From positions 3,215-67,214 of the forward strand of contig JAYRIM010000014.1 in the NCBI GenBank assembly GCA_041906785.1: DNA of 64,000 nt, read 5' to 3'. The position numbers and the translations under genes are program-made. The DNA is from Candidatus Levyibacteriota bacterium. Its GTDB lineage: Bacteria > Patescibacteriota > Microgenomatia > Levybacterales > UBA12049. The notes beneath the pieces were generated by a model. It made no database searches and was not told where the DNA came from. It worked only from the letters and a program-made list of their open reading frames with translations. Below are positions 10,820 to 61,600 of the stretch, in pieces; positions within the stretch are counted from its first letter, which is position 1, and every line of letters begins with the position of its first letter.

Positions 10820-11950
10820 ATGCCCGAAAATGATCTTGATATACAAGCTTCTGATATTTCATCCGTACAGAATAATCCAGCTAAGAAAAAAAGAATAAGC
10901 AGTGGTTGGATTGTTTTTCTGACAGTATGTCTTTTCACGTTAGTGGTTTTTTTGGGTTTTTTCCGATTTTTTCCTCCAACTGTGAGTAATTCTGTTAGTA
11001 GAAAACTTAATTCTGTAGAAACCGTATCTCCAACACCGATGCCTTTTAGAGAACTGACGATTCCATATCTGCGAGAAAGAGAGTATACAAGTTCCTTCGA
11101 AGAAGAAACGTTACTTTCAGAAAATGAGTCGTATACAACGTATCTTACAGAGTATACCTCTGATGGTTTACGAATAAACGCATTACTGACAAAGCCGAGA
11201 GATGAAATACCAGAAGGTGGATGGCCGGCGATTATATTTGTTCATGGGTATATTCCTCCGTCTACCTATGAAACAAATGGCCAGGCGTATTCGTCATATG
11301 TTGATTATCTCGCACGTAATGGATTTGTAGTGCTTAAAATTGATTTACGTGGCCATGGAGAGTCTGAAGGGGAAGCGGGGGGAGGATACTATGGTTCTGA
11401 TTATGTCATAGATACGCTTAATGCATATGCAGCTTTACAAAACACTGCATTTGTAAATCCGAGAAAAATAGGAATGTGGGGGCACAGTATGGCAGGAAAT
11501 ATATTGATGAGGAGTTTTGCTGCGAAACCTACAATCCCAGCAATCGTTATATGGGCTGGAGCTGTATATTCATATACAGATATGCAGAAATATGGTATTC
11601 AGGATACGAGTTACCGGCCGCCAATGCCTACGACGAACACGAGAAGTCAAAACATGAGACGTAAAATGTTTGAAACGTATGGTAGTCCGAGTGCTACAAG
11701 CCCGTTTTGGAAACAAGTTGCGCCTATAAATTATCTAGATGACCTTAAAGGTGCCATTCAGATTCATCATGCTGTTGACGATTCAGTAGTCAATATCGGT
11801 TATAGCAGAGATTTAGTAACATTATTAAACGAAACTCAAGTAGAACATGAGTTCTATGAGTATACAAGTGGAGGGCATAATATTTCAGGAGAAAATTTTA
11901 CCATAGCAATGGACAGAACTGTAGATTTCTATAAAGCCTATCTTCAATAG
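10820..11950 (+). CDS. alpha/beta hydrolase (S9 prolyl-oligopeptidase / dienelactone-hydrolase-like), membrane anchored
   Basis: N-terminal TM, nucleophile elbow GMWGHSMAG (GxSxG), C-terminal ...HHAVDDSVV... and GGH. Confidence 0.65.
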   Translation: MPENDLDIQASDISSVQNNPAKKKRISSGWIVFLTVCLFTLVVFLGFFRFFPPTVSNSVSRKLNSVETVSPTPMPFRELTIPYLREREYTSSFEEETLLSENESYTTYLTEYTSDGLRINALLTKPRDEIPEGGWPAIIFVHGYIPPSTYETNGQAYSSYVDYLARNGFVVLKIDLRGHGESEGEAGGGYYGSDYVIDTLNAYAALQNTAFVNPRKIGMWGHSMAGNILMRSFAAKPTIPAIVIWAGAVYSYTDMQKYGIQDTSYRPPMPTTNTRSQNMRRKMFETYGSPSATSPFWKQVAPINYLDDLKGAIQIHHAVDDSVVNIGYSRDLVTLLNETQVEHEFYEYTSGGHNISGENFTIAMDRTVDFYKAYLQ

Positions 11951-11980
11951 TTTCTACAATGAATGGTGGCGAGTACACAA

Positions 11981-12727
11981 TTAATCTAAATAAGGGAGTT
12001 CTCCAGGAGAGTCTGGATGCTTTCTTAAAAAAAGCAAACCTTTTTTTAGATAATTCTGTAAAGGAGAAACGATTGCTTTATGTTCTATTCCTTTTCTGTT
12101 TAGATTATTCATCCACCCATCGACTGGAACATTAAAATGAGTTTGTAAATAATCAAATGAAGGTGTCTCTAAAAGGATCATGCCACCTTCAGGGTGTAGC
12201 ATTCTCCACATTCTGGCTAGTGTGATTCTATAATACCAGTTATTTACAGGTATGTGGTACATCCCAGCATCGCTTCGAGACATAATAAGATGTGCGTGAT
12301 CAGGATGTAACAAATCATCAATTTTTCTAAAAGAATCTGGTTTATTCATATCAAGTGGTAGCATGTCTATTCCTAAAGATTTATCAGCAATTTTATCTTC
12401 CTCTATGCGAGTATCTTCATAACCTATCGCGATGCCTCGTTTGGTCTGTTGGGGTAATCTTTTTAAGAGAGATCGGACAGCATAAGTTGGGGAAAGGAAA
12501 TCCATCACTACAGGTTTTTGTTGTGCAGCTAAATAATACATTATACTTTCTTGAGGTATCAGTTCTTTAAATTCATTCATATAATCATCAAAGGAACTAT
12601 AAAAAGTGGCCCAGTGTGCATCAAGGACTCCACGCCTTGGTTTTTTGCCTTTAGCTTCATATGCTGCGAGCTGTCTTTGAGCGTCGTGAATGTGATACCG
12701 TAATCGCGAGGTAAGGCTTTGTGACAT
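11981..12727 (-). CDS. hypothetical protein
   Basis: Long ORF with no motif I can assign. Confidence 0.4.
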   Translation of the reverse strand: MSQSLTSRLRYHIHDAQRQLAAYEAKGKKPRRGVLDAHWATFYSSFDDYMNEFKELIPQESIMYYLAAQQKPVVMDFLSPTYAVRSLLKRLPQQTKRGIAIGYEDTRIEEDKIADKSLGIDMLPLDMNKPDSFRKIDDLLHPDHAHLIMSRSDAGMYHIPVNNWYYRITLARMWRMLHPEGGMILLETPSFDYLQTHFNVPVDGWMNNLNRKGIEHKAIVSPLQNYLKKGLLFLRKHPDSPGELPYLD

Positions 12728-12902
12728 AGAAAATTAAGTTCAACAGATATATTATAGGATGTCAATGTAATGCATAAAAAGTAGAGTTTTATACAAATTA
12801 TTTATTAGTAGAAAAAAGTACATATCAGGTATTAAATTGGAAATTACTAACTGCTTTTTTTATAAAATTTTCAGCTGATTTTCAGCTCTCCTGGTATAAT
12901 CT

Positions 12903-13583
12903 GTGCATATGAGAATACTCGTGGTAGAAGATGAACATAAAATCGCTCATGCAATTAAAAAAGGATTAGAACAGGAACGGTATGCAGTAGATGTCGTATA
13001 TGATGGCGTTGATGGTCTCGACTATGCTTCGACTGAAGAGTATGACCTTATTATTCTCGATGTTATGTTGCCTGGAATGGATGGTATAGAATTTACAAAA
13101 CAGCTTCGCGGTATGCAGAAACATACGCCCGTTCTTATGCTTACAGCGAGGGGACAGACTGAAGATAAAATAAAAGGGTTAGATACAGGTGCAGATGATT
13201 ATATAACGAAACCTTTTGCTTTTACAGAGCTTGTGGCCAGAGTACGAGCTTTACAACGACGTCCGAGAAAAACAACAGGAACACAACTTTTTATAAAGGA
13301 TTTAGCATTAGATCCTGTGAAATTTGAAGTTACCCGAAATGGAGAATATATAAAGTTATCACAAAAGGAATTTGCTCTATTGGAGTATTTAATGAGACAT
13401 GCAAATCGTATTATTACAAAAGACCAAATTATCCAACATGTGTGGAATTATGATGCGAACGTTCTACCGAACTCTGTTGAGGTATATATCAAACATTTAC
13501 GAGATAAAATCGATAAACCCTTTTCTAACAAACCGAACTTAATCCATACAGTACGGGGATTTGGATATAAAATAGGTAATTAA
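12903..13583 (+). CDS. OmpR-family response regulator
   Basis: REC domain (ILVVEDE ... DLIILDVMLPGMDG ... LMLTARG) plus winged-helix C-terminus. Confidence 0.85.
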   Translation: MHMRILVVEDEHKIAHAIKKGLEQERYAVDVVYDGVDGLDYASTEEYDLIILDVMLPGMDGIEFTKQLRGMQKHTPVLMLTARGQTEDKIKGLDTGADDYITKPFAFTELVARVRALQRRPRKTTGTQLFIKDLALDPVKFEVTRNGEYIKLSQKEFALLEYLMRHANRIITKDQIIQHVWNYDANVLPNSVEVYIKHLRDKIDKPFSNKPNLIHTVRGFGYKIGN

Positions 13584-13683
13584 AAAATAAAATATAAAAA
13601 TGAAAAAAGATAAGGATTATATTTATAAAAATAATTCCTTATAACATTTTTGACTTTTCACTTTTCTTTTTTATTTTTTTACA

Positions 13684-14694
13684 ATGTTTCATTCTGCACG
13701 ACTTACATTAACTGCCTGGTATTTGGCTATCATCATGGCCATCAGTATACTATTCAGCTTAGTAATTTATGTGAATGTTAATAATGAATACCGCCAGCTA
13801 GAGCATTTAGAAGATATTATTGCAGAGCGAAGAATGCATGGTTTGCCAATTCCTCGCCAGCTTAATCGTTCCTGGATAGATCCACAATTAATTACTGAAG
13901 CACGTTCACGTTTCATTTCTCGTCTCATCTTAGTTAATGTATTTATTTTTGGTGTTTCTGGGGTTGCAGGATATTTTCTCGCTGGCAGAACATTACGTCC
14001 TATTCAAGAAATGGTTGATGAACAGCAGCGTTTTATTGCAGATGCATCTCATGAATTACGTACACCTTTAACATCTTTACGGTCTGAAATAGAGGTGGGG
14101 TTACGGAATAAGAAATTAACCACACATGAATCAAAAGCCTTATTAGAAAGTAATTTAGAGGAAGTAATACAGTTGCAGAGATTATCAGATAGTTTATTGG
14201 AGCTGGCTCAGGCGGAAAAACGTTCTAGTAGGTTACAGTTTGTGAAAATTTCGTTATATGATTGCATAGATGTAGCCATTAAAACATTACATGGGTCATT
14301 AAAAAAGAAACAGATAACTGTTGAGAAAAAAGGGACTAATGTATCTTTCGTCGCAGATTATGCTAGGTTAGTGGAGCTTTTCGTTATTCTTCTGGATAAT
14401 GCTTTGAAATATAGCGCAGAGAAGAGTGTGATTAAAGTGGAAGGGAAATATGTAAAAGACCATGTTGAAATGTATGTCATAGATGAGGGATATGGTATAG
14501 AAGATTCTGAATTACCACATATTTTCGACAGATTTTATCGTTCCAATAAATCGCGTTCAAAGGAACAGATTTCAGGATATGGGTTAGGATTAGCGATCGC
14601 AAAGAAAATAGTCGAAGATCATAATGGACAGATATCAGCTAAAAGTACGATTAATAAGGGAAGTACATTTATTATAAAATTACCTAGAAAGTAA
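13684..14694 (+). CDS. sensor histidine kinase (partner of the 12903 regulator)
   Basis: Two TM helices, H-box ADASHELRTPLTSL, G-boxes; the gene follows the regulator gene. Confidence 0.8.
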   Translation: MFHSARLTLTAWYLAIIMAISILFSLVIYVNVNNEYRQLEHLEDIIAERRMHGLPIPRQLNRSWIDPQLITEARSRFISRLILVNVFIFGVSGVAGYFLAGRTLRPIQEMVDEQQRFIADASHELRTPLTSLRSEIEVGLRNKKLTTHESKALLESNLEEVIQLQRLSDSLLELAQAEKRSSRLQFVKISLYDCIDVAIKTLHGSLKKKQITVEKKGTNVSFVADYARLVELFVILLDNALKYSAEKSVIKVEGKYVKDHVEMYVIDEGYGIEDSELPHIFDRFYRSNKSRSKEQISGYGLGLAIAKKIVEDHNGQISAKSTINKGSTFIIKLPRK

Positions 14695-14745
14695 AAAAAA
14701 GATTCCCTATAGACATTCTGTTTTTTTTGCTATACTGAAGTACAC

Positions 14746-15309
14746 ATGGCCGCATACCATTTCGTCAGCGATACACACCAACGATTAAAGGTGCTTATTA
14801 TTGAGCGTTTACCATGGTTGCTTTTGGGATTAGTAGGTGGGACAGCTGCTTCATTCCTCGTATCTCATTTCGAAGAAATTCTCCAGCAGAATATTCAGCT
14901 CGCATTTTTCGTTCCTATGATCGTCTATATGTCAGATGCAGTAGGGACACAAACAGAAACAATTTTCGTTAGAGATCTTACAGAACACAGAGCGAATTTT
15001 TATAAGTATTTATGGAAGGAATTTTATATTGGTTTATCATTGGGGGTTATTTTGGGTGTACTTATTGGTTTGATTGCATATCTGTGGCTTCGTGATAGTT
15101 TAATTGCCTTAACTGTTGGAGTCGCTATGCTTGTAAATGTCGCTATCGCACCTATGCTTGCGATTATAATCCCAGAAGCATTATTTAAAGAGCACCGGGA
15201 TCCTGCATTAGGTGCGGGTCCGTTTACGACAGTCGTTCAAGACTTTGTCAGTTTACTCGTGTATTTTGTGGTGGCGACAGTTATTATCTGGCATAGAGTT
15301 ATTTTTTAA
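14746..15309 (+). CDS. MgtE-type divalent cation transporter membrane domain protein
   Basis: MIVYMSDAVGTQTETIF motif and 5 TM helices characteristic of the MgtE C-terminal domain; no CBS/N domain. Confidence 0.5.
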   Translation: MAAYHFVSDTHQRLKVLIIERLPWLLLGLVGGTAASFLVSHFEEILQQNIQLAFFVPMIVYMSDAVGTQTETIFVRDLTEHRANFYKYLWKEFYIGLSLGVILGVLIGLIAYLWLRDSLIALTVGVAMLVNVAIAPMLAIIIPEALFKEHRDPALGAGPFTTVVQDFVSLLVYFVVATVIIWHRVIF

Positions 15310-15631
15310 TCGGTTTCTTCTTTGGTTTCCATTGGGAGATTGTTAGATCAACCCGATCTTGAATAAATGTTACTCCTTCTTCTATTAGTATTTTCTTTTT
15401 TTTGCGAACTCCTCCAAATGCATAGCCTGCGAGTTTTCCGTTTGCAGCGACGACTCGATGACAGGGAATGATTTCATTATCGGGATTTTCTTTCATACAG
15501 AGACCGACAGCTCGTGCGGCTCCTGGATGACCTATGAGATTTGCTATTTGGCTATAGGTAGCTACTTTTCCCGCAGGGATGTTTTTAGCAAGAGCATAGA
15601 CTTTATAGCGAAAAGTATATTGGATTGTCAT
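15299..15631 (-). CDS. ogt: methylated-DNA-protein-cysteine methyltransferase (MGMT/Ogt DNA-binding domain protein)
   Basis: Active-site IPCHRVV motif, HTH ...YSQIANLIGHPGAARAVG... Confidence 0.7.
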   Translation of the reverse strand: MTIQYTFRYKVYALAKNIPAGKVATYSQIANLIGHPGAARAVGLCMKENPDNEIIPCHRVVAANGKLAGYAFGGVRKKKKILIEEGVTFIQDRVDLTISQWKPKKKPIKK

Positions 15632-15864
15632 GCTTTAGTTTAATTCGGGTTCTGTCATTCGTTTGGTATACAGTGCTCGTTCTAGTCTCGCATTTTTTAA
15701 AAATTTAAGGAGGCAGCGAACGAACTGCGCGCTGTATACCTTCACTTCATGCCACCGGAATTTTTATATTTACCTTGAGTATAAAAAAAGAAACAGACTT
15801 TGTCTAATCTATAGTAGGAGATACATATTTTAAGCATTTTTTCAGATAGCTTTTATAGAGTATA

Positions 15865-15956
15865 CATTGGAGAAAGCGAAGACCGCTTTCGCTAAAGCTA
15901 TAGCGACCGAAGAGTGCCTTCGTTAAAACTATGGCACTCGAAGGAGGTGAATAAAT
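15865..15956 (+). promoter_or_regulatory. conserved 5'-leader hairpin/anti-RBS element, copy 1 (two tandem CGAAGA..GC.TTCG hairpins)
   Basis: GACCGAAGAGTGCCTTCGTTAAAACTATGGCACTCGAAGGAGGTGA immediately precedes ATG 15957; homologous to 24827-24882 with compensatory changes. Confidence 0.5.
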
Positions 15957-16433
15957 ATGAAGAAGCAATTGTTAGTTCCCATATTAGCAGTGACTACAGC
16001 AGGTACCGTTCTGTTTGGCGTTCATACTCTCTATGCGCAAACTCCTGAGACATCGTCGCTCGTCTCGAGAATAGCACAAAAATTTGGTTTAAAGGAAAGT
16101 GATGTTCAGTCAGTTTTCGATGAGTATCGAGATGAGCGTCATAAAGAAATGGAAGCGCGCTTTGAAGATAAACTGACTCAAGATGTAACAGATGGAAAGA
16201 TCACAGAATCGCAAAAACAGGCTATTTTATCGAAAATGAAAGAGCTGCAAGAGAAGAAACAATCGAACATCGATGCATGGAAAGATATGACTCCTGAGCA
16301 GCGAAGAGATGCGATGAAGAAAGAACGTGATGAACTAAAGAAGTGGGCAGATGATCAAGGAATTGATCTAAGCCTCATACATTTCGGGATGAAAGTTCAC
16401 GGAATGAGAATGATGGGTAAAATGATGAATTAA
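15957..16433 (+). CDS. secreted hypothetical protein (signal peptide, charged helical body)
   Basis: N-terminal signal-peptide-like MKKQLLVPILAVTTAGTVLFGVHTLYAQT; strong RBS; terminator downstream. Confidence 0.5.
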   Translation: MKKQLLVPILAVTTAGTVLFGVHTLYAQTPETSSLVSRIAQKFGLKESDVQSVFDEYRDERHKEMEARFEDKLTQDVTDGKITESQKQAILSKMKELQEKKQSNIDAWKDMTPEQRRDAMKKERDELKKWADDQGIDLSLIHFGMKVHGMRMMGKMMN

Positions 16434-16448
16434 GTTTGTCTGGTTTTA

Positions 16449-16481
16449 GAAAACACCCTCGATTCGTTCGGGGTGTTTTCG
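16449..16481 (+). terminator. Rho-independent terminator
   Basis: AAAACACCC-tcgattcgttc-GGGGTGTTTT. Confidence 0.65.
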
Positions 16482-16519
16482 TAGAAAAACATGCAATATA
16501 ATTTGGTACTATAATATTT

Positions 16520-16804
16520 ATGCAATTCTACGTATATATAGTGGAGTGCAATGATGGTACTTACTATATAGGAAAAACTTCAGATCTTCGAAAAAGGTTG
16601 TTAAAACATAATAAAAAACTACCTGGGGGAGCTAAATATACTCGAACAAGAAATCCTGTAATACTTGTATATTACGAACAATATATATTACATAAATTTG
16701 CAATGCAGCGGGAGTTCAGATTAAAACAATTCTCAAGAAAGAAGAAAGAGGAACTCGTCAATGGTTTTACTGCTTGTTTTTTAGATTTTAATTCTTATTC
16801 GTGA
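16520..16804 (+). CDS. GIY-YIG nuclease family protein (UPF0213/YhbQ-like)
   Basis: FYVYIVECNDGTYYIGKTSDLRKRLLKHN = GIY...YIG...R motif. Confidence 0.7.
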   Translation: MQFYVYIVECNDGTYYIGKTSDLRKRLLKHNKKLPGGAKYTRTRNPVILVYYEQYILHKFAMQREFRLKQFSRKKKEELVNGFTACFLDFNSYS

Positions 16805-17184
16805 AGTACTTCTGGTAGGGGTTGGTCTTTTGGGATAAATTTGATTGATAGAGAATTTACACAGTGACGTGTGTTCTTATCTGTTAAATATTCACCCCCG
16901 AACACATGGCCGAGGTGGCCTCCACAATTCGCGCATTGGATCTCAGTTCTTCGTCCGTCTAGATCAGCTAAACGTTTTACTGCATCGGGAAAATTTTCAT
17001 CGAACGCTGGCCAGCCGCAATGAGCTTCGAACTTGGCCTTCGATGAAAAAAGAGGATTATTACATTGTCTACAGATAAATGTACCGTCGACAAAGAAGTT
17101 ATCATATTCACCAGAGAAAGGAGGCTCTGTGCCTTTGCCTTTTACTACCATCATTTCTTCCTGGTTCAGTTTGTTATATGGCAT
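16795..17184 (-). CDS. msrB: peptide-methionine (R)-S-oxide reductase MsrB (cytoplasmic copy)
   Basis: CxxC...CxxC zinc site, CGWPAF, RTEIQCANCGGHLGHVF. Confidence 0.85.
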   Translation of the reverse strand: MPYNKLNQEEMMVVKGKGTEPPFSGEYDNFFVDGTFICRQCNNPLFSSKAKFEAHCGWPAFDENFPDAVKRLADLDGRRTEIQCANCGGHLGHVFGGEYLTDKNTRHCVNSLSIKFIPKDQPLPEVLHE

Positions 17185-17189
17185 AAAGA

Positions 17190-17549
17190 TTAAGCGACAG
17201 TGGAAATACTAAGTTGTTTTTCTATTCGGCCCAGGCGTTTCCGTTGATCCATTTGTTCTCGGTCGAGCAAATCAAGCATACTATCTTGGTCCTTTTTTAG
17301 TGATTTCAACATTTTACTGTGACCTTCAAGCGTTCTGGTATGACCTTCAAGTATTCTGGTGTGACTTTCCAATATTCTCGTATGACTTTCAAGTGTTCTT
17401 GTATGGCTTTCAAGTAACTTAGTATGGTTTCCAAGGATTTTAGTATGACTTTCAAGAATTTTTCCATGATTTTCTAGCTGTTTATGAATAGGCGCTAATT
17501 TTTCGTCAAGTAATTCTGAAATTTGTTGGAGATCATTGGTGTTTCTCAT
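17190..17549 (-). CDS. coiled-coil protein with ~7-8 tandem heptad repeats (LESHTRI)
   Basis: Protein contains ILESHTKILGNHTKLLESHTRTLESHTRILESHTRILEGHTRTLEGHSKML; the DNA has a 21-nt tandem repeat. Confidence 0.5.
   Translation of the reverse strand: MRNTNDLQQISELLDEKLAPIHKQLENHGKILESHTKILGNHTKLLESHTRTLESHTRILESHTRILEGHTRTLEGHSKMLKSLKKDQDSMLDLLDREQMDQRKRLGRIEKQLSISTVA
17305..17470. repeat. intragenic 21-nt tandem repeat (~7-8 units) encoding LESHTRI heptads
   Basis: ttcaagtattctggtgtgactttccaatattctcgtatgactttcaagtgttcttgtatggctttcaag... Confidence 0.75.
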
Positions 17550-17867
17550 TGTTTACTAGTTGTAGCATAGATTCTTATATTTTGTCTATAAGGATGTTAA
17601 GCTTTTGAGCTTTATTCTTATTGATTCTATGTCCCATAGTTTGACAAGCGCTTAAGAGTTTGATATTCTTCACATGACATTTGAAGAGATATAAGGCGTT
17701 TGCGCTGAAATATCTTTTCTTATGTTATTTTTTTCTCTTGCACATTGATAGTTCGTTACTGTAATACCGCCAGTTAGGAAAACAATAAGCTTTTTGATAA
17801 CTTGTTTCTCTTACGGGCGGTATTATTAACATGGGCTCAAGGAGCCCTCTCACGAAAGGAGTTCGCG

Positions 17868-18494
17868 ATGTTGTCTTCAGCTTTCTCGCTCGTAAGTCAT
17901 CTCAAGGAGAAGGCTCGGCGGGTCCGTAAGACGTCCTGGCACTTCAAGGTCGTCGAGAGCCTTTGGGGCCACCGAGTGTGGCATACAAAGGCATGCAAGT
18001 ACTGGTGGATAATGGTGCCGACGTCACTCTTCGTCCTGGGACTGGTGTACCTGATCGGCGGCATCATGTACACGGTAGGCTTTCTCCTCGGCTACGCGCC
18101 GAGGCCGGAAAGCAAGAAGTACAGCTCGAGCGACGATCGGATGTTCATGCCGCACGGCGAGTTGCCTAGTGGCCGGAAATGGCCGTGGTATATCCAGCCG
18201 TGGTTTATGCTGGCTGTCTTCGCGGTTTTCTGGTTTGCCGTGAGTTTCCCGGAAACCTTCTGGTGGACAGTTGGCTGGATCGTGAAGATTGTGGTCGTGG
18301 TCGTCCTGGTCGGCTTCGTCGTCTACTTGCTCGGGAAGGGCTGGAACCTTCCTGGCTTCCGCGCCGGCCGACGGACGGTCCGCCGGCAGATCTCGGGAGT
18401 CTGGGACAAGGTCTGTCCCAGTCTAGTCGTCGTTCAGAACGGCGACGATCGAGTAAACGATACTCACGCCGAAGAGTACGACTACGACGACTAG
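17868..18494 (+). CDS. hypothetical membrane protein encoded on a GC-rich segment
   Basis: ATG 17868 preceded by an aaaggag RBS (the six-frame ORF starts at TTG 17802); 3-4 TM helices; GC visibly far above flanks; own terminator. Confidence 0.45.
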   Translation: MLSSAFSLVSHLKEKARRVRKTSWHFKVVESLWGHRVWHTKACKYWWIMVPTSLFVLGLVYLIGGIMYTVGFLLGYAPRPESKKYSSSDDRMFMPHGELPSGRKWPWYIQPWFMLAVFAVFWFAVSFPETFWWTVGWIVKIVVVVVLVGFVVYLLGKGWNLPGFRAGRRTVRRQISGVWDKVCPSLVVVQNGDDRVNDTHAEEYDYDD

Positions 18495-18542
18495 CGTCTG
18501 GCTCACAAGTAACGAACAACATCATATGTCCGCAAGAGAACG

Positions 18543-18580
18543 CCCCGGCAGTACCCACTGACCGGGGCTTTCTCGTTTTA
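18543..18580 (+). terminator. GC-rich hairpin + T-tract terminating the GC-rich segment-1 gene
   Basis: CCCCGG-cagtacccactga-CCGGGG-ctttctcgtttt. Confidence 0.5.
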
Positions 18581-18589
18581 TGTGTAGTT

Positions 18590-19114
18590 CTATTTATCTG
18601 GGATAAATTTGAGTGCTATAGAATTCATGCAATACCGTTTTCCTGTCGGCGTAGGACCATCATCAAAAACATGACCTAGATGATTACCGCATTTGTCGAG
18701 TACTTCAATTCTTGTTAAGCCCAGTGTCGTATCTTCACGCAGAACCAACGCGTCTTCTGTAATAGGTGCCCAGAAACTCGGCCAGCCAGTTCCAGAATCA
18801 AATTTCTGTTCAGAGCGGAAAACTGGTTCATTACAGCCAACACTATAATATGTCCCTTTTCTTTTTTCATGATTTAATTCTCCAGTAAAAGGAATTTCAG
18901 TTCCTTGCTCCCGAAGAATATGATATTGTTCTGGAGTTAATAGCTTCTTCCATTCTTCATCAGTTTTTATTTTCGTTTTATCGAAAGAGCCAGAGATTAT
19001 TTTTCCTTCTTGTATTGATGAATCTGAGATTGTTTGCTTATCTTTTTTTATGAATATAAAAGATAGAATAGAAAGTATACAGATAAAACCTACTAGAAGT
19101 AATTTTTTATTCAT
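18590..19114 (-). CDS. msrB: MsrB, exported/membrane-anchored copy
   Basis: N-terminal TM/signal MNKKLLLVGFICILSILSFIF, then GCNEPVF...GWPSF...RIEVLDKCGNHLGHVF. Confidence 0.8.
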   Translation of the reverse strand: MNKKLLLVGFICILSILSFIFIKKDKQTISDSSIQEGKIISGSFDKTKIKTDEEWKKLLTPEQYHILREQGTEIPFTGELNHEKRKGTYYSVGCNEPVFRSEQKFDSGTGWPSFWAPITEDALVLREDTTLGLTRIEVLDKCGNHLGHVFDDGPTPTGKRYCMNSIALKFIPDK

Positions 19115-19937
19115 ATAGTAATAGTTTAAGTTTACTTATTTAAAGAGAATTATACCTCTCCGCTTCAGATTTGCAATTAGTTTTGGATAAATCTGAAGCT
19201 ACGGGTATAATACGCTATTTGTAAATCTAAGTAAAAGGAGTATAGTCAAAACTTTATTGCTACTCTCTTTAGATTTATTTATAATCCAATTGCTGAAAAG
19301 AATAACGGAGAATGTTTGCATTCTTAATCGTTGTTTGATCGGCATTACCTTACTTGTAAACTATTCGAGAAGTGAAGGGGAGAGAGAGGAGAGATATGAT
19401 TTCTTTTCTCTTTCCCTCACTTCTCACTCGGGGAAGTGAGTATAAGAAAGAGGACTTCCGATGGCACGTACGAAGCTTCAACTCACTGATGAGCAGCTTT
19501 GGGCTCTGCGCTTCTGGTTTCCAGAAGCTAAAGACAAACGTGAGATGCAGGTTTTAAGGGTTACAAGATCCAGACGGAAGAATACCGAGCAGACACATCT
19601 GAGAGTAGTGATGGCGAAGCCAGAAGGAGTAATACTCTATCTGAATACTTTAACATTAGCTGTCTCTGAAGTGCCAGCATGACTCTATCGCGAGTAAGGA
19701 TAGGCACCCGTCCCCGGGTGCCTTCGTCGTTTTCTACCTTTTTCCTCTTGCATCTCCGATATATAATACGCCTAAGGTAAATCCATTATCATTCGTCAAA
19801 GTCTGGGACGAGGGCGTTCCAGATCGAAGACGAAAGATCTTTGACAAGGAAGGAGAGATATCCCCACAACCACACAATTGAATACGCTTCTATCAACTGA
19901 GTAAGTCGTTAACTTAGTCCAACAGGAGAGGACACTA

Positions 19938-20648
19938 ATGTCTACTATAACTGTCGAGCACGGCACACAGGAACTCCATATCTATCGGTTTGGAACGCAG
20001 GGCAAAGCGAAGCCTGTCCAGCAGTACTTTCCCGTTGAAGCAGAAACGGAGTTGAGACTTCATACTGGTCCCGGTACCGCTCGGACAGCTACGTTCAGTC
20101 TCACACCAGAGGCTGACTTTGCGAGATTGGTACTCAAGAAACGTATCGGTCGCACACCCGTGGCCGAAAGGAAAGTTCAAAAGGAGGAACTGGATGCAGG
20201 GGTAACGTCAGTAACAGTGAGGTTTGAAACTCAGCCGACTGAGAGAGGGCAAGTAGCTCAACCGATCACTAGCGTCAGATCAGTTCCTAAGAAGGGGGAC
20301 CCCTTCAGATTGGTCAGCATTCGAACACTCGCCGGCCTGCTTCAAAGAGCAGATGTTGATGGGGGTGAATATCGGGAAGTACAGGTTATTGACCTCGTGG
20401 CGCGGAACGTTGATGCCGAAGAGGATGACAGCATTGAGGCACAAGTGCGTCGTTTTGCCGAAGCAGGCGGAAGCCTGGCAGAACTAGCGCGCCGTGTAGT
20501 TCGGTATGCCACGCGGGGTCGCTCGGTTGACTCAGCGACCTTTGAGACAGAAGTAGGTGCCTTCGAAAAAACACTCACAGCTATGGTGGCACCAGAACAG
20601 CCGTCACTCGTCAAATCAGTACTGCGGCGCTTCAAGATTGGCAAGTAG
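19938..20648 (+). CDS. hypothetical protein encoded on a GC-rich segment
   Basis: 236-aa ORF, GC-rich codon usage unlike neighbours, no recognisable motif. Confidence 0.4.
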   Translation: MSTITVEHGTQELHIYRFGTQGKAKPVQQYFPVEAETELRLHTGPGTARTATFSLTPEADFARLVLKKRIGRTPVAERKVQKEELDAGVTSVTVRFETQPTERGQVAQPITSVRSVPKKGDPFRLVSIRTLAGLLQRADVDGGEYREVQVIDLVARNVDAEEDDSIEAQVRRFAEAGGSLAELARRVVRYATRGRSVDSATFETEVGAFEKTLTAMVAPEQPSLVKSVLRRFKIGK

Positions 20649-20716
20649 TCAGTGACCGGGGTTTGGGACTGTTGATTCATGATGTGGGTGGGAGATAGAA
20701 CTCCTTCTTTTTCTTA

Positions 20717-20812
20717 CCTACACTCATGAATCTTTGTGATTATACGCGCTAAACTACGCAGAACTATACGCGTAAATACGCTGAATCAATCACAGAGATT
20801 CTGAGTGTAGGG
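20717..20812. repeat. ~25-bp imperfect inverted repeat flanking TACGCG direct repeats, at the edge of GC-rich segment 2
   Basis: CCTACACTCATGAATCTTTGTGATT ... AATCACAGAGATTCTGAGTGTAGG; centre atacgcgctaaactacgcagaactatacgcgtaaatacgctg. Confidence 0.45.
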
Positions 20813-20833
20813 ACATACTTTACCCTACGGAAA

Positions 20834-20888
20834 CCTGTTGGCTGAACATATGCGTTCATAACCAGCAGGTTTTTTTGTTTTTTTTCAC
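20834..20888 (+). terminator. hairpin + long T-tract at the right edge of GC-rich segment 2
   Basis: CCTGTTGGCTGAAC...GTTCATAACCAGCAGG + TTTTTTTGTTTTTTTT. Confidence 0.45.
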
Positions 20889-21066
20889 ATCAATAGATAC
20901 GTCCTTAGTGTTTTTTGTTTTACTTTGCTATAATTTACAGTAGAGTTATATACTAATTTCTACGAATTATATCCAAATTAATCCAAATAATTGTTTTATT
21001 CGTAATAATTAGGATTAAATAATCTTTTTTATTCGGATCAATTTGTAGGGAGAGGTGGTGATAAGA

Positions 21067-21489
21067 ATGAATGTTGAAGTAAATTTTCTCGCAGTTCTTC
21101 TCGCAGCTGTTGCTTCTATGGCACTTGGTTTTCTATGGTATAGTCCGACAATGTTCGGAAAACCCTGGATGAAACTCATGGGTTTGACAAATGAAAGTTT
21201 AAAAAAAGCGCAAAAAGAAATGGGAAAACTGTACGGTGTTAGTTTCGTCCTCGCTCTCGTCACTGCATATGTTTTATCACATGTCATGACATTATCTGGA
21301 AATTTTTATAACTATACGAGAGTGATGACTGGACTAACGACTGCTTTCTGGATGTGGCTCGGTTTTATCATGCCAGTTCAGCTTACTGACCAGATCTTCG
21401 GCGCAAAAAAGTGGAAACTGTTCGGGATAAATACAGGATACCAACTTGCATCATTAGTCGTGATGGCAGTAGTGCTGGGGTTTTTATAA
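21067..21489 (+). CDS. DUF1761-like small membrane protein
   Basis: MNVEVNFLAVLLAAVASMALGFLWYSP... pattern, 4 TM helices; ATG 21067 after RBS ggagaggtgg. Confidence 0.45.
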   Translation: MNVEVNFLAVLLAAVASMALGFLWYSPTMFGKPWMKLMGLTNESLKKAQKEMGKLYGVSFVLALVTAYVLSHVMTLSGNFYNYTRVMTGLTTAFWMWLGFIMPVQLTDQIFGAKKWKLFGINTGYQLASLVVMAVVLGFL

Positions 21490-21674
21490 TCAGTTAGTTT
21501 TTACTTCTTTTAAACTTATTCTGTTATAACAGAATTTATTTTAGTGGGATTTTAAGTCTCCAATTTCGAGTTTCCAGTTTCCATTTAGTAACGATTTATC
21601 AATTTATTATGAAAATAATTGGAAAATGGAAATTGGCAATTCGAAAATTTAATTACGTGCTATACTAGGCGCGT

Positions 21675-21932
21675 ATGCATGACACCTATATCTCTGCAAG
21701 TGAACTAGCTGAATATGTGTATTGCCAGTGCTGCTGGATGGATAAACTTGAAGGCTTACAGAAAGAAACTCTAGAAATGGAGAAAGGAAAAAGTGCACAT
21801 GATTCTATCTACCGCTGGGTATTTCTTTTCCTTCGAGCTCGATTAGCTATCATTTTTCTCATATTAGTTAGTGCCATTATTTTCTTAGCACAATTTATTT
21901 TAGTATTTATCTATCATACAAGCCTATGGTAA
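21675..21932 (+). CDS. Cas4-like nuclease N-terminal fragment (Cys motif) fused to a hydrophobic segment
   Basis: ISASELAEYVYCQCCW resembles the Cas4/DUF83 N-terminus; overlaps the next ORF by 7 nt in another frame. Confidence 0.4.
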   Translation: MHDTYISASELAEYVYCQCCWMDKLEGLQKETLEMEKGKSAHDSIYRWVFLFLRARLAIIFLILVSAIIFLAQFILVFIYHTSLW

Positions 21933-22414
21933 TACTTATAGTTTTTTTCATATTATTTATCCTGGGAATTAGTGCACTTTTTACTATTACTTTCGCAAGG
22001 AGAAATTTCCTTCCTGAAGGAGAAATCATGTATGCTGACTCATCAGCCAAACCTGCTGGCATTCTGCATTCGACTACCATTCCTATAATGGGAAGACCAG
22101 ACTATGTGTTAAAGAAAGATGAATTTTATATTCCAGTAGAAGTGAAAACGGGGAAGACTCCGAAAACACCATACCCGAATCACGTCGCACAGCTATATGC
22201 ATATTGTTTTCTCGTCGAAGAACGATATCATGTTCGTCCGCCATATGGCGTTATCCGGGACCCTGAGAAAGAATTTATGCTGGCATTTCCTGAGCAGACT
22301 GAGAATTACTTAATTCACACGGTTAATGAGATTATAGAAAAGAAAAAAGGAGAATTGTCGAGAAAAGAATTAAAAAGGATGTGTAAGGAATGTAGGGAAC
22401 ATATAAAAGAATAA
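21926..22414 (+). CDS. Cas4/RecB-like PD-(D/E)XK nuclease core with N-terminal TM helix
   Basis: GRPDYV...IPVEVKTGK (D...EVK), QLYAYCFLVEE (QxxxY), C-terminal CKEC. Confidence 0.55.
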   Translation: MVILIVFFILFILGISALFTITFARRNFLPEGEIMYADSSAKPAGILHSTTIPIMGRPDYVLKKDEFYIPVEVKTGKTPKTPYPNHVAQLYAYCFLVEERYHVRPPYGVIRDPEKEFMLAFPEQTENYLIHTVNEIIEKKKGELSRKELKRMCKECREHIKE

Positions 22415-22453
22415 TTTTTCTTCTTACTTTTGTTGGCAAAAGTAACAAAACCA

Positions 22454-22536
22454 GTGAGCTAGTGAGAAAATGAGCTAAAATTGTTTCATTCTGACACTCA
22501 TTCAACAATTTCTTCACGCATTTTCTCAACGCTCAC
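22454..22536. repeat. MITE-like element, family 1, copy B (83 nt)
   Basis: Same ~19-bp terminal inverted repeats and internal sequence as 976-1116. Confidence 0.6.
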
Positions 22537-22676
22537 AGATATAATTGTTTTTGTAATAGTCCTGTAGTATAATCCTCTGGCTTATCTGTATCTTATAGAT
22601 TTTATCTAAAAAGATTGCTTTTAAGCGCACTTTTACAAGCTAGTGCGTATTACGTGGCCGTTAGGAATATAGTTAT

Positions 22677-22702
22677 GAGTTGTCAGTTGTCGGCTGTCAG
22701 TT
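22677..22702. repeat. CAGTTnTC(A/G)G decamer-family repeat, short intergenic copy
   Basis: GAGTTGTCAGTTGTCGGCTGTCAGTT. Confidence 0.5.
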
Positions 22703-22709
22703 AAGACAA

Positions 22710-23700
22710 TTTGCTCATTACTATATTGCTAGCGGTCACTAGCACTTCTCATATCAGAACAAGACTCGAAACACAGGAGTTACTACTATGCGAGATCCAG
22801 AGCGTGATCCATTCGAAATCGTTGATAAGACGCTTGCGTTTGCTCAACGAATCATATCAGCGTCCGGCCAGAAAGGGTTGTTCACGACAGTGCTTGTCGT
22901 AGATCCTCGGGGCCGAGAACTGGTCGGTAAGAAAGCATGGGCGGGTAGCCCACCCACAGATCCGAAGCCGCGTCCACCGCACATCGGCCCGGCCAAGTTG
23001 GCGGAGATTCTGCTATATGGCGACCTTGACTTGCCGCTAGAGATGAGTCCTATAAGTGGGTTACTGTCAACCGGCTTCATGGGCGGTGTTCGACGACTCG
23101 TCCATGACTACCTCGTGGACATCCACTTTCTCACATCGTGCAGTGGGTGGTCGCAGGAGAGCGACGCGATGATGGCGCTCCTTCTCAACTACTGCATGAC
23201 ATACCCGATCCAACTGCACCACGTAGGATTTGGGTACAAGACAGAGGAGGATGCGCGGGCCGCTATCGAGGCCGACGAGAGGTACTACGGTGTCACGGGT
23301 CTCTATCATCCCGTGGATGACCATCACCGGGTTTACATTCTCACACCCGCTGGTCATTATCGCGAACACCAGTGGGGCGAGGACGTTAAGCCTGGCAACG
23401 TCCACTGGGACTTTTGGACACCAGACATCTCGCCTGAGTTCGTTATCAACTTCATTGCCCGGCAATTGGGGAGGCGTGTCCTGGAGACCAACATGTGGGA
23501 CCACTCTCCCAATTCGCCTGTTGGCGTCGTATGGACAGACAACGACGGGAGACCCTTCGGCGTGATGACCAGGAAAGAGTGGTGGAACGTTTCCACCGCG
23601 TAAGTATCAACCTGAGAAGTGTGACCGCACTAGCTTGCGGGATGGGGCGAGTTTAGGTGTAACAGCCTAGCTCGTCCCTCCCAACAGCTAAACTATAGAG
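22710..23700. other. GC-rich segment 3 (putative acquired cassette)
   Basis: Elevated GC over the 271-aa ORF; a family-1 MITE and decamer repeats lie at its left edge. Confidence 0.45.
22788..23603 (+). CDS. hypothetical protein encoded on a GC-rich segment
   Basis: 271-aa ORF with GC-rich codon usage, no recognisable motif. Confidence 0.4.
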   Translation: MRDPERDPFEIVDKTLAFAQRIISASGQKGLFTTVLVVDPRGRELVGKKAWAGSPPTDPKPRPPHIGPAKLAEILLYGDLDLPLEMSPISGLLSTGFMGGVRRLVHDYLVDIHFLTSCSGWSQESDAMMALLLNYCMTYPIQLHHVGFGYKTEEDARAAIEADERYYGVTGLYHPVDDHHRVYILTPAGHYREHQWGEDVKPGNVHWDFWTPDISPEFVINFIARQLGRRVLETNMWDHSPNSPVGVVWTDNDGRPFGVMTRKEWWNVSTA

Positions 23701-23715
23701 TGAAATAATGTGAAT

Positions 23716-24777
23716 TTACTTCTTCTCGCCCTCTTCATTTTTATGGAGTTCTCCATCTTCACGAAGAAATTTTATAATACTTGGAATACTGGCAGCAGTC
23801 GGAAGTGCTAGGAATGCGCCAATAACGCCGAATAACGATGCGCCGATAATAAGTGCTATAAATCCGAGAGCTGGAGATATGTGTAACGCTTTATTATAAA
23901 TAGTCGGCGCGAGAATTCCCCCTTCGATTTGTTGATAAATCAGATAGAGTAACGCTATTAATAGAGCAGTAAACGGTGAAATACTTAACCCAATTAAAAT
24001 TGCAGGAATCATCGCGAGTGTTAATCCCACAAGCGGAAATAAATCGAGGAGTGCAGTGAAAATAGCTAAAGGTGCTGCGAAGGGAATATTCATAAGCGTT
24101 AGTCCGATAAAGATAGTTAAACCGCAAAATGTTGAAATAAATAATCCACCTCGAACATATTGTCCATTCACATGAGCGAGTTCATGGAGTAATCGTGCGA
24201 TTCGTTTTTGTCGCGGGCTGGGAAGAACAGAGAGAAACATCTCTACTAATCGTTTTCCATCCAGAAGGAAATAAAATGTTAAGAAAAATAATGTTAGTAA
24301 AGAAGTAAAAATACTTGTAATAAATGTTGTCGATAATAAAACGTAACTGGCTGCATTTTCGGCATACTGTGAAAGATCTACTTTTCTCGCTGCAGGTGGA
24401 ATAATAGGAGACTTATTTAATAACCCATCAATAGTTGTTAATACATCCGGGAGTTGATTAATAAAACTCGGAATAATTGTAAGACCAAGAATAATAAAAG
24501 GAATAAGCAGTAGACAAACCACAAGCATCGCTGAAATGATCATGGGAAGATGTTTATCCAGTTTTTTAGCCAAAGGATAGAGTGCAGTTGAAAGCATCGC
24601 CGAAATCAGAATTAGAATGAGTATCGGTAATGCTTTCCATACGAAAAGAAGAATTAACCCGGCAGTGATAATGCGTCCAAGTGCATTCCAACTAAAAGGG
24701 TGTTCGTATTTCTGCATATAAATATTGTACGGTATAAATCTATGTGTTACAACACATCTTGCAAAACGTATTCTCAT
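23716..24777 (-). CDS. AI-2E family transporter (PerM/UPF0118)
   Basis: 8 TM helices with the characteristic AI-2E pattern; true start may be the internal Met (MQKYEH, ~24717). Confidence 0.75.
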   Translation of the reverse strand: MRIRFARCVVTHRFIPYNIYMQKYEHPFSWNALGRIITAGLILLFVWKALPILILILISAMLSTALYPLAKKLDKHLPMIISAMLVVCLLLIPFIILGLTIIPSFINQLPDVLTTIDGLLNKSPIIPPAARKVDLSQYAENAASYVLLSTTFITSIFTSLLTLFFLTFYFLLDGKRLVEMFLSVLPSPRQKRIARLLHELAHVNGQYVRGGLFISTFCGLTIFIGLTLMNIPFAAPLAIFTALLDLFPLVGLTLAMIPAILIGLSISPFTALLIALLYLIYQQIEGGILAPTIYNKALHISPALGFIALIIGASLFGVIGAFLALPTAASIPSIIKFLREDGELHKNEEGEKK

Positions 24778-26201: not shown

Positions 26202-26450
26202 ATGAAGACAAAAATAAGAAAAATCGGAAATTCGATGGGCGTCATAATTCCTAAAGAAGTTCAGAAAGAGGCTGAATTAAAATTAGGAGACAATGTTGCT
26301 GTTTTATATTCTCCCTCAGAAAGTACAGTAGTTATTGGAAAGGAAGAAGATATGAAAGTAAAATCTCCTATCACGCCTGAATTTTATAATTGGTTAAAAA
26401 ACTTCAATAAAAAATATAAAAAAGCGCTTACTGAGCTTGCAAAAAAGTGA
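26202..26450 (+). CDS. AbrB/MazE-type antitoxin
   Basis: MKTKIRKIGNSMGVIIPKEV swapped-hairpin motif; overlaps doc by 4 nt. Confidence 0.65.
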   Translation: MKTKIRKIGNSMGVIIPKEVQKEAELKLGDNVAVLYSPSESTVVIGKEEDMKVKSPITPEFYNWLKNFNKKYKKALTELAKK

Positions 26451-26845
26451 AAATACACTATCTTACATTAGATGAAGTGCTTGCTATTCATGATAGTATG
26501 ATTGAAGAATATGGGGGTAGTTCTGGAATTCGAGATGTTGGTTTAATCCAATCTGCAATCGCAAGGCCACAAGCATCCTTCGGAGGTGAAGATCTTTATA
26601 AGAATATTTTTGACAAAGCTGCTGCTTTTTTTCATTCTTTGATGTTTAATCATGCATTTGTCGATGGGAATAAACGAACGACGATTACATCAACAGCACG
26701 ATTTTTATATAAAAATGGATATGAGCTAGCGGTCAATGAGAAAGAATTTGTTGCATTTCCTTTACGAGTAGAAAATAATCATTTAGATATAGAAGAAATT
26801 TCTGCTTGGTTGAAAAAGAATACAAAAAAATTAACAGATCTATGA
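26447..26845 (+). CDS. doc: Doc toxin (Fic/Doc family death-on-curing kinase)
   Basis: HAFVDGNKRTTI = Doc HxFx(D/N)GNKR motif. Confidence 0.8.
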   Translation: MKIHYLTLDEVLAIHDSMIEEYGGSSGIRDVGLIQSAIARPQASFGGEDLYKNIFDKAAAFFHSLMFNHAFVDGNKRTTITSTARFLYKNGYELAVNEKEFVAFPLRVENNHLDIEEISAWLKKNTKKLTDL

Positions 26846-46057: not shown

Positions 46058-46200
46058 TCAGTTCTCAGTTTTCAGTTGTCGGTTTTCAGATTGCAGTTTA
46101 TCGGTTATTAGTCTTTCAGTTTTTAAATATCTGACAAACTGAAAATGGATAGACTGGTAGCTGACGCTGATAACCGAAAACTGATTACGGATTCTGCCTC
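46057..46200. repeat. CAGTTnTC(A/G)G decamer-family element arranged as a long imperfect palindrome
   Basis: Direct decamer variants (CAGTTCTCAG TTTTCAGTTGTCGG TTTTCAG...) followed by the inverted set (CTGATAACCGAAAACTGA). Confidence 0.55.
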
Positions 46201-61470: not shown

Positions 61471-61600
61471 ATTCAGTTATCAGTTTTCGGTTATCAGTTA
61501 TCGGAATTTAGGTCACCAGTTATCAGGTTGCCAGTCTGATAAACAGAAAACCGTTCAACTAGTATCTGAAAACAGACAACTGAAGACTGATAACTGAACT
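61471..61600. repeat. CAGTTnTC(A/G)G decamer-family element (direct then inverted units) upstream of dnaB
   Basis: CAGTTATCAGTTTTCGGTTATCAGTTATCGG ... CTGAAAACAGACAACTGAAGACTGATAACTGAAC. Confidence 0.55.

Follow-up and report, generated by a model that had tools for sequence, protein, structure and literature searches.

The 64,000-nucleotide stretch of contig JAYRIM010000014.1 (positions 3,215–67,214, forward strand) of a Candidatus Levyibacteriota bacterium, hereafter the window, carries at 17.7–23.7 kb three single-gene units of guanine-cytosine (GC)-rich DNA, which we call cassettes A, B and C and which are interleaved with genes of native composition (Table 1; coordinates are those of the window). 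A reading of the letters alone (hereafter the sequence-only reading) had described abrupt switches to GC-rich segments in AT-rich DNA at this place, and quantification bore out this description. The whole window is 37.8% GC. Outside positions 17500–23800, windows of 300 nt have a mean GC content of 0.372 (standard deviation, 0.040; maximum, 0.497) and none exceeds 0.5; the 41 windows that do exceed 0.5 all fall within that interval. Two-state segmentation returned long GC-rich segments at 17833–18568 (0.583), 19951–20694 (0.539) and 22858–23688 (0.573), the sole long stretches above 50% GC in the window, and every one of them is co-extensive with a single open reading frame (ORF) and its 3′ hairpin. 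The second segment had originally been drawn from 19445 to 20880; 19951–20694 is indeed GC-rich, but 19445–19950 is only intermediate (about 0.46 GC) and contains a separate ORF, B0. The segmentation also marked two stretches of about 200 nt within ordinary genes, 8385–8599 and 35056–35242, the latter coinciding with imperfect 18–30-nt tandem repeats in a 781-aa LysM protein.

Codon and tetranucleotide usage of the three ORFs was compared with that of 32 host genes, whose GC content at third codon positions (GC3) is 0.28 ± 0.05 (maximum, 0.39). The deviations amount to z = 4–10 (Table 1), and a codon index trained on the host genes gave –9.3, –5.2 and –8.3 standard deviations for A, B and C, respectively. 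The open frames are longer than expected from 2000 shuffles (p ≤ 0.001; p = 0.001 for A and p < 0.0005 for B), and a Shine-Dalgarno sequence lies 6–9 nt upstream of the ATG in all three (AAGGAG, 6 nt ahead, in A). A, B and C are real protein-coding genes. The idea that they might be structured RNA genes was ruled out by their clear codon periodicity and by the conservation of C as a protein; an Rfam scan of the window gave no match reaching the gathering score, the matches at E < 1 being no more than miRNA-like hairpin noise, and the window contains no tRNA or tmRNA. Unrelated Patescibacteria and Saccharibacteria loci, fetched via another gene and totalling about 590 kb, contained two comparable islets, as against three in 6 kb here; the three GC-rich islets are clustered far above the base rate.

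The units appear to have a common layout: a promoter region rich in AT precedes a long, structured leader, followed by a Shine-Dalgarno sequence and a single ORF, and each unit closes with a 3′ hairpin or terminator of its own. Several elements of the sequence-only reading were recovered independently: the hairpin terminators after A and B, the interleaved native genes (a second msrB, a DUF1761 protein and a Cas4-like nuclease, all found by Pfam, with Cas4 split in two ORFs), and the repeats at the junctions, namely a copy of a miniature inverted-repeat transposable element (MITE)-like sequence about 96% identical to 976–1116 and a long palindrome after B. The further claim that each segment holds one orphan ORF devoid of domains stood as to the number of ORFs, but not as to C, which has relatives and recognisable folds.

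Table 1. Features of the 17.7–23.7 kb region, in order of position
Feature	Position	Strand	Details
5′ arm of inverted repeat around A (TTCTCTTGCACATTGATAGTTCGTTACT)	17733–17760	+	leader-trailer alignment score 32, z = 7.1–7.2 vs shuffles
A leader hairpin, 24-nt arms	17762–17825	+	inverted repeat I5, 83% complementary
ORF A	17868–18494	+	208 aa; GC1/GC2/GC3 (codon positions).55/.42/.78; GC3 z +10.3; tetranucleotide distance z 8.6
3′ arm of inverted repeat around A	18508–18540	+	leader-trailer alignment
A intrinsic terminator	18536–18585	+	hairpin GCCCCGG...CCGGGGC, then U-rich tail; z = –3.9
msrB2	18590–19114	–	Pfam SelR, E = 4e-46; N-terminal signal/transmembrane segment; GC3 = 0.24; between A and B0/B
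Leader hairpin ahead of B0	19367–19425	+	inverted repeat I7; fold –45.7 kcal/mol, z = –4.4
ORF B0	19461–19682	+	73 aa, basic, GC 0.46; terminator 19702–19733
5′ arm of inverted repeat around B	19843–19883	+	z = 4.2–5.1; doubles as terminator-like hairpin on minus strand
ORF B	19938–20648	+	236 aa; GC1/GC2/GC3.65/.46/.49; GC3 z +4.3; tetranucleotide distance z 6.1
3′ arm of inverted repeat around B	20675–20713	+	weak hairpin and U-run inside
Long palindrome, ~30-bp stem	20717–20812	+	follows ORF B and precedes its strong terminator; fold –43.1 kcal/mol, z = –8.9
B strong intrinsic terminator	20829–20885	+	13-bp stem and U7GU8; z = –4.7
DUF1761 membrane protein	21055–21489	+	Pfam E = 8e-33; native composition
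Cas4-like nuclease, two overlapping ORFs	21675–21932 and 21926–22414	+	Pfam Cas_Cas4, PDDEXK_1; native composition
MITE-like copy with terminal inverted repeats (GTGAGCTAGTGAGAAAAT / ATTTTCTCAACGCTCAC)	22454–22536	+	blastn 95.7–97.1% to 976–1116, in two pieces
Promoter-like box CCTGTAGTATAAT	22561–22575	+	exact 13-mer also upstream of the C homologue in L057 (position 9873)
C leader	22636–22745	+	outer arm CAAGCTAGTGCG 22636–22647; long hairpin 22654–22739; fold –50.6 kcal/mol, z = –5.1
ORF C	22788–23603	+	271 aa; GC1/GC2/GC3.61/.43/.65; GC3 z +7.7; tetranucleotide distance z 7.6
Conserved 3′ element GTGTGACCGCACTAGCTTGCGG	23619–23640	+	complementary to leader GCGGTCAC (22732–22739) and CAAGCTAGTGCG (22636–22647)
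GC-rich 3′ hairpin of C, without U-run	23639–23690	+	z = –3.6; 26 nt from stop of convergent AI-2E-type permease gene

A word-filtered protein search with C returned C alone. This result was overturned by a full HMMER scan of 1.84 billion representative sequences, which found about 100 relatives, 68 of them at E ≤ 1e-10; the best are 45–49% identical to C and most are about 260 aa long. Their alignment features near-invariant LHHVGF, DHxR, ExQ, HWD, DPxG and MARxxWW motifs. AlphaFold modelling of C with the family alignment gave a pLDDT of 95.5 and a pTM of 0.92, while the single-sequence prediction was uninformative (pLDDT 45). When the model was compared with the PDB by Foldseek, VOC enzymes were matched at a probability of 1.0 (methylmalonyl-CoA epimerase, the C-As lyase ArsI, and HPPD/hydroxymandelate synthase). 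Its C-terminal half has the paired beta-alpha-beta-beta-beta modules of the metal-binding cup of this superfamily, to which glyoxalase I also belongs, along with His/Glu-rich conserved motifs; its N-terminal half is predicted to adopt the GlcG/DUF336 fold of HbpS, EfgA and the C-terminal part of PduO. Neither domain was detected by the Pfam or NCBIfam models. We confidently predict, on the strength of this model, that C is a GlcG/DUF336-like domain fused to a VOC (glyoxalase/dioxygenase-type) domain and that it represents an unannotated, widespread family; to our knowledge there is no annotated example of such a fusion. Conservation in the alignment marks the near-invariant H144, H145, E193, H206 and D208 as candidate metal ligands.

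We fetched the contigs of eight further C-family members and compared the GC content of each C gene with that of its flanks. The gene exceeded its flanks at all nine loci: the window (.562 against.372), L057 (.567 against.389; the only islet in 20.8 kb), L065 (.581 against.416), L069 (.521 against.364), L062/L063 (.487 against about.40; a metagenome-assembled genome labelled Patescibacteria), L067 (.477 against.424), L068 (.453 against.368), L056 (.526 against.456; a 965-bp contig) and L060 (.589 against about.50; a mosaic contig). Seven of the eight fetched contexts are low-GC contigs, and a Patescibacteria label stands on one record only. The GC3 values of the family range over.41–.66, a spread that fits differing residence times, or amelioration. 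The immediate neighbours of the C gene differ at every locus, while stress genes (msrA, msrB, AhpC/redoxin, NUDIX, cupin and glyoxalase) recur in its vicinity. C is probably a metal- or haem-dependent enzyme or sensor of stress or detoxification, a role that fits such neighbourhoods. Homologues bearing the same GC anomaly at a conserved locus had been named by the sequence-only reading as a sign against acquisition; the anomaly is present in all C homologues examined and loose linkage in two, but the immediate neighbours are never the same.

Two of these contigs have further peculiarities. In L060 (1–12660; Logan SRR29761459), which encodes the most central C-family protein among those sampled, most genes are GC-rich (about 0.58; range 0.55–0.62), mostly small and unannotated, and a minority at about 0.42 (0.40–0.45) includes genes for an NYN protein, an ECF sigma factor, an acetyltransferase and DUF7768; the mosaic resembles that of the window, with GC-rich DNA as the majority. 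L069 (contig GC 0.35) has other moderately GC-enriched segments at 12519–13087, 14256–15181 and 19044–19566, among small unannotated genes.

The non-coding flanks of the cassettes were examined by aligning the 180 nt upstream of each of 66 window genes to the reverse complement of the 180 nt downstream, with a threshold of z = 3. Inverted repeats connecting leader and trailer were found around all three cassettes (z = 7.2, 5.1 and 4.0 for A, B and C, respectively), as compared with three of the 63 other genes, one of the latter being a TetR gene that lies between two palindromic MITE copies. In C, the 3′ arm is at 23626–23637, and GCGGTCAC and GTGACCGC add to the complementarity. Leader-trailer complementarity was also seen at five of eight C-family loci, with a different sequence each time. 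The proteins of the window, L057 and L056 are 41–45% identical (window and L057, 41–42%), but their genes nonetheless have non-coding flank elements in common: a long leader hairpin with the conserved base UGGYCG...YGGUCA and a 3′ motif, GU(G/U)UGACCGCA, located 11–19 nt past the stop codon. The 13-nt promoter-like box, which sits outside the repeat arms, is common to the window and L057 only. The two ends co-vary, GGTCAC occurring with GTGACC and GGTCAAA with TTTGACC. Across the three loci, the C leader hairpin keeps 19 pairs, 4 of them with compensatory changes, as well as invariant G.U pairs, and it folds far better on the sense strand. Sense-strand-only folding and the G.U pairs suggest that the leader hairpins work as RNA rather than as duplex DNA. 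Pairing between 5′ and 3′ untranslated regions (UTRs) occurs in the hbs mRNA of B. subtilis and the icaR mRNA of S. aureus, and RNase III processing stems flank rRNAs. We tentatively suggest, from complementarity and its recurrence, that leader and trailer of the cassette mRNAs could likewise pair in a 12–33 bp stem, for closure, processing or regulation of the transcript.

Other signals in the flanks were less distinctive. Leader hairpins were rejected as a cassette-specific feature, many native genes having them too, and the enrichment of GTGACCG/TGACCGS, considered as a signal common to the cassettes, was not significant. Computed leader-trailer RNA duplex energies rank the cassettes high with modest z values, but the measure is noisy and was not used as evidence. 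The apical loop of the C leader hairpin bears two host-type GTTGTCRGYT repeats, which the L057 leader lacks. This decamer is found seven times in the window against 0.37 expected, always on the plus strand (22679–22695, 46075, 48318 and 58684–58714), and tandem arrays related to it lie at 46058–46123 and 61472–61504. The 8-mer GTTAGGAA, preceded by CCG, occurs in the left arm of the leader hairpin in both A (17773–17780) and C (22660–22667); its count over the whole window (3) is close to expectation (2.6), and the match may be a coincidence.

The contiguity of the contig was assessed with the Logan assembly of run SRR26835457. One Logan contig is 100% identical to the window over 11445–19237, and a second matches 19215–22274 save for a single base, 22259. 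Between them, the two contigs bridge the four junctions of A and B and take in B0 and the native neighbours. An assembly chimera, in which GC-rich fragments of another organism were mis-joined to the contig, had been raised as the trivial alternative. We give it next to no credence: the contig is metagenome-derived and the C junctions have no independent assembly support, but a second assembler reproduces the four A and B junctions, three mis-joins that each excise exactly one intact gene with its Shine-Dalgarno sequence and terminator are implausible, and in eight other assemblies C homologues contrast with their flanks in the same way.

We consider it somewhat probable that the cassettes are moron-like transcription units that entered a variable region of a low-GC Patescibacteria chromosome by horizontal transfer, and that their donors were of moderately high GC content. 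On this reading, the 17.7–23.7 kb interval would be a variable region in which A, B, C and the intermediate-GC B0 have come to lie between the native msrB2, DUF1761 and Cas4-like genes. The units would most likely have been acquired separately, the likeliest route being recombination after DNA uptake, and the C family would travel or persist as a GC-rich single-gene islet with conserved non-coding flanks. Judged from GC3, the donors may have had about 55–65% GC and probably belonged to the gene pool common to Patescibacteria, rather than being an actinobacterial host of 70% GC. Regressions of GC content against codon position, reportedly those of Muto-Osawa and of Lawrence and Ochman (1997), would place the donor of C at about 55–60% GC from GC1, GC2 and GC3 alike, with little sign of amelioration, and that of A at about 65% from GC3; for B, GC3 points to about 48% and GC1/GC2 to more than 60%, which fits an older arrival. 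A survey of 125 Patescibacteria genomes described many individually transferred genes, mostly exchanged among Patescibacteria (PMC12455944). Taken together with the codon-position estimates, this makes a donor of moderately high GC within the Patescibacteria pool the most economical choice, and L060 demonstrates that such contexts exist.

Repeated independent acquisition at an integration hotspot, as first proposed, retains its separate, clustered units of foreign composition, but not the machinery of integration or an att-like site. A Pfam scan of about 50 window proteins turned up neither an integrase nor a transposase, and no phage protein; no direct repeats bracket the GC-rich segments, and neither the window nor L060 has shared attC-like palindromes. 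The window is otherwise ordinary chromosome, with genes for DnaB, HisRS, PrfB, SSB, YchF, two-component systems, proteases and transporters (Pfam).

Several observations weigh against acquisition from such a donor. Seven of the eight fetched C contexts are low in GC and L060 alone is GC-rich, so that a GC-rich reservoir has to be postulated and the donor itself has not been found. For A and B, the case for horizontal gene transfer (HGT) is one of composition alone, and Logan support extends to their junctions and not to the two junctions of C. A search for an empty site reached no close relative of this genome: in the nearest genomes, found via the flanking permease, that protein is only 62–64% identical and no neighbours are in common. 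Flanking repeats were not found around the GC-rich genes of L060, and strongly structured upstream regions are common among the native genes of this genome. The sampled C proteins are mutually 26–45% identical and star-like in their relationships, so recent exchange is not visible. Two loci also show loose linkage with genes of the window. In L057, a Fic gene 65.5% identical to that at 37637–38623 lies 0.8 kb from the C gene, and YchF is 57% identical; in L067, an S9 peptidase gene (59%) and msrB (57%) lie within 3 kb of the C gene. The window counterparts of these genes are 5–15 kb from C. By a rough estimate, the chance of each coincidence is a few percent for genomes of about 1 Mb, and both L057 and L067 seem to derive from organisms related to this one. 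The linkage is compatible both with long residence of C, its GC excess being kept, and with a conserved hotspot at which C-type genes were replaced, and does not separate the two. Had C been resident for long, its GC excess should have been erased.

These last observations lead to a different account, in which the cassettes have been resident for a long time, C at the least, and a gene-specific force keeps their GC content high. Selection on the structure or stability of the mRNA is one candidate force and would fit the pairing of leader and trailer; others are escape from AT-targeting nucleases or silencers and, at a recombination hotspot, GC-biased repair. Such maintenance would accommodate the GC excess of C at nine of nine loci despite the divergence of the copies, the linkage with Fic/YchF and with S9 peptidase/msrB, the conserved or co-varying leader and trailer elements, and the amino acid composition of about 90 full-length family members, which is centred on the values of the sampled copies from low-GC contexts. 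We nevertheless hold it to be unlikely: three unrelated anomalous genes within 6 kb are more simply explained as foreign, a GC3 excess of 20–50 points is much larger than the effects generally reported for biased gene conversion, the GC3 of the family varies as widely as amelioration predicts, and the immediate neighbours are different in every genome. Direct capture from a high-GC actinobacterial host (the donor suggested by the sequence-only reading), by way of its genome or one of its phages, is very improbable in our judgement, although many cultured Saccharibacteria live on Actinomycetota, the highest cassette GC3, that of A, reaches 0.78, and A and B have no detected relatives. Cassette GC contents of 0.53–0.58 and GC3 values of 0.49–0.78 contrast with 0.70–0.72 and 0.92–0.98 in Actinomycetota loci. 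The actinobacterial or phage relatives that had been expected did not appear for C: its contexts are low-GC in seven cases and mosaic in one, with one Patescibacteria label, and none is actinobacterial in composition. A tblastn search with A, B and C of 50,697 phage records, including many from actinobacteriophages, gave no match, nor did a search of plasmids with B. IMG/VR held no locus for C or for protein P0007, PADLOC had no match for A, B or C, and PHROG matches of the window proteins were weak only; on these nulls, a phage, plasmid or defence origin of the cassettes was rejected.

The inverted repeats could also be read as the ends of a non-autonomous mobile element, that is, a passenger gene with terminal inverted repeats or IS200/IS605 PATE-like hairpin ends that is moved by a transposase encoded elsewhere. 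The presence of such repeats around all three ORFs and at five of eight C-family loci would fit this proposal, as would the shared, co-varying end motifs of the window, L057 and L056, the MITE-like elements in the genome and the different sites of the cassettes in different genomes. We regard it as quite improbable in view of the repeats themselves, which are wholly different among A, B, C and the C-family loci, so that one transposase cannot recognise them. Being specific to each cassette, internal to the transcription unit and free of visible target-site duplications beside the arms, they are poor candidates for transposon ends. Neither a cassette nor an arm recurs within the window, and no transposase was found among about 50 of its proteins. 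In A, GC-rich DNA with the terminator continues past the right arm; in C, the arms do not enclose the conserved promoter box; and the G.U-rich hairpins that fold well only on the sense strand point to RNA. A tentative idea, to which we lean little, is that AT-rich Patescibacteria harbour a class of autonomous gene unit that has escaped recognition, represented by the C-type cassette and perhaps by A and B. Such a unit would be a single gene with its own promoter box, a conserved leader hairpin and a 3′ element complementary to that leader; its GC content would be maintained 10–20 points above the genome through long evolutionary periods instead of being a waning sign of transfer, and it would either be moved by a hairpin- or repeat-dependent mechanism or produce an mRNA that is closed or processed by 5′–3′ pairing.

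The closest known kinds to the moron-like units that we favour are moron-like insertions and recombinase-free HGT hotspots. Like phage morons (Hendrix/Juhala), the cassettes have a single ORF of deviant composition between unrelated genes, with predicted promoter-like sites and a terminator of their own; they differ in being chromosomal rather than located in a prophage, with no phage genes nearby and no phage homologues found. Oliveira et al. (2017, Nat Commun) are said to have described chromosomal HGT hotspots lacking mobility genes, and the cassettes resemble these in that accessory genes of foreign composition occupy a short interval without an integrase. Here, however, foreign and native genes alternate singly, and one family keeps its GC excess across deeply diverged genomes. 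The integrase, the tRNA or att site and the flanking direct repeats of a classical genomic island are missing. Mobile insertion cassettes and cargo MITEs likewise have a gene bracketed by inverted repeats with no transposase inside, but the repeats of our cassettes are individual to each, lie inside the transcribed unit and come without target-site duplications or further copies in the window. Integron cassettes, including those in clusters of attC sites lacking integron integrases (CALINs), too are small, have one ORF each, vary in composition and end in an imperfect palindrome; they are mostly promoter-poor, many have no known function, and their attC sites have the form R″ (RYYYAAC) ... R′ (GTTRRRY). 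This assignment was rejected: there is no intI, the 3′ hairpins of A, B0, B and C are mutually unrelated and lack R″/R′ boxes, and the units are not contiguous. They have, moreover, their own promoter-like boxes and U-run terminators, and L060 has no repeated attC-like sites. GTTAGGA does occur in the leader hairpins of A and C, but in the left arm, the wrong one for attC, and it does not end in a pyrimidine. What makes the locus unusual is that C shows its GC excess throughout the family and has conserved non-coding flanks, and that leader and trailer are complementary in each of the three cassettes.

If the cassettes were simply acquired, they would be a well-delimited case of ultra-small episymbionts gaining single stress-related genes without mobile-element machinery, and from a source other than the obvious donor, the high-GC host. 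The C family, with its predicted GlcG/DUF336 and VOC domains and its location near genes for methionine sulfoxide reductases, peroxiredoxins and NUDIX proteins, offers a lead on oxidative and electrophile stress in Patescibacteria. Should the GC excess prove truly persistent, it would challenge the routine use of composition as a clock of transfer and suggest that selection or repair acts on individual genes in AT-rich genomes. The co-varying complementarity of leader and trailer is a candidate regulatory architecture.

Proteins A and B returned only themselves in word-filtered protein searches, a type of search that also missed the relatives of C. Protein A had nothing above the curated cut-offs in Pfam, PHROG, NCBIfam and PADLOC and no match in phage records or PDB sequences; it is hydrophobic, with several probable membrane-spanning segments, as read by eye, and an acidic C-terminal tail. 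The RNA fold of its leader (17725–17867) has an energy of –39 kcal/mol (z = –3.1). Protein B is soluble and had nothing above threshold in Pfam and no match in PHROG, NCBIfam, PADLOC, phages, plasmids or the PDB. The long palindrome downstream of B is single-copy in the window by blastn. B0, which was also called as a gene independently in the Logan contig, had no family match in Pfam, PHROG, NCBIfam or PADLOC, and the guess from its LTDEQ motif that it might be an N-terminal remnant of an IS5-type transposase found no Pfam support even at E ≤ 5. The B0 leader folds at –53.5 kcal/mol on the sense strand as against –35.5 on the antisense strand. Upstream of B0 and B, a promoter-like TATAATACGC..(N6)..TAAATC is present at 19206–19227 and 19762–19783, and the two copies agree at 17 of 22 positions; the overlap of the two Logan contigs (19215–19237), and hence the break between them, falls within the first copy.

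Among the native neighbours, the Cas4-like ORFs overlap by 7 nt (ATGGTAA), and the PADLOC Cas4 model matches the first ORF with its N-terminal part and the second with its C-terminal part; a hydrophobic, transmembrane-like segment lies between the N-terminal Cys motif and the PD-(D/E)XK nuclease core. The gene is solitary, with no cas genes among the scanned proteins and no CRISPR-like array detected by Tandem Repeats Finder. The MITE-like element upstream of C is an internally deleted copy of 976–1116 from which the central 60 nt are gone. Another palindromic MITE-like element (TGTCATCCTGA...TCAGGATGACA) occurs at 2147–2228 and 2804–2881, on either side of the TetR-family gene (2237–2797). 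Between msrB1 and A, a 119-aa protein (17190–17549, minus strand) without a family match has about seven tandem 21-nt (7-aa) repeats, HT(K/R)xLES, at 17304–17471. A pair of genes for a MazE/AbrB-type antitoxin and a Doc/Fic toxin is situated at 26202–26845, 1.4 kb past the permease, and the larger second Fic gene (37637–38623) adjoins a PDDEXK_3 nuclease gene.

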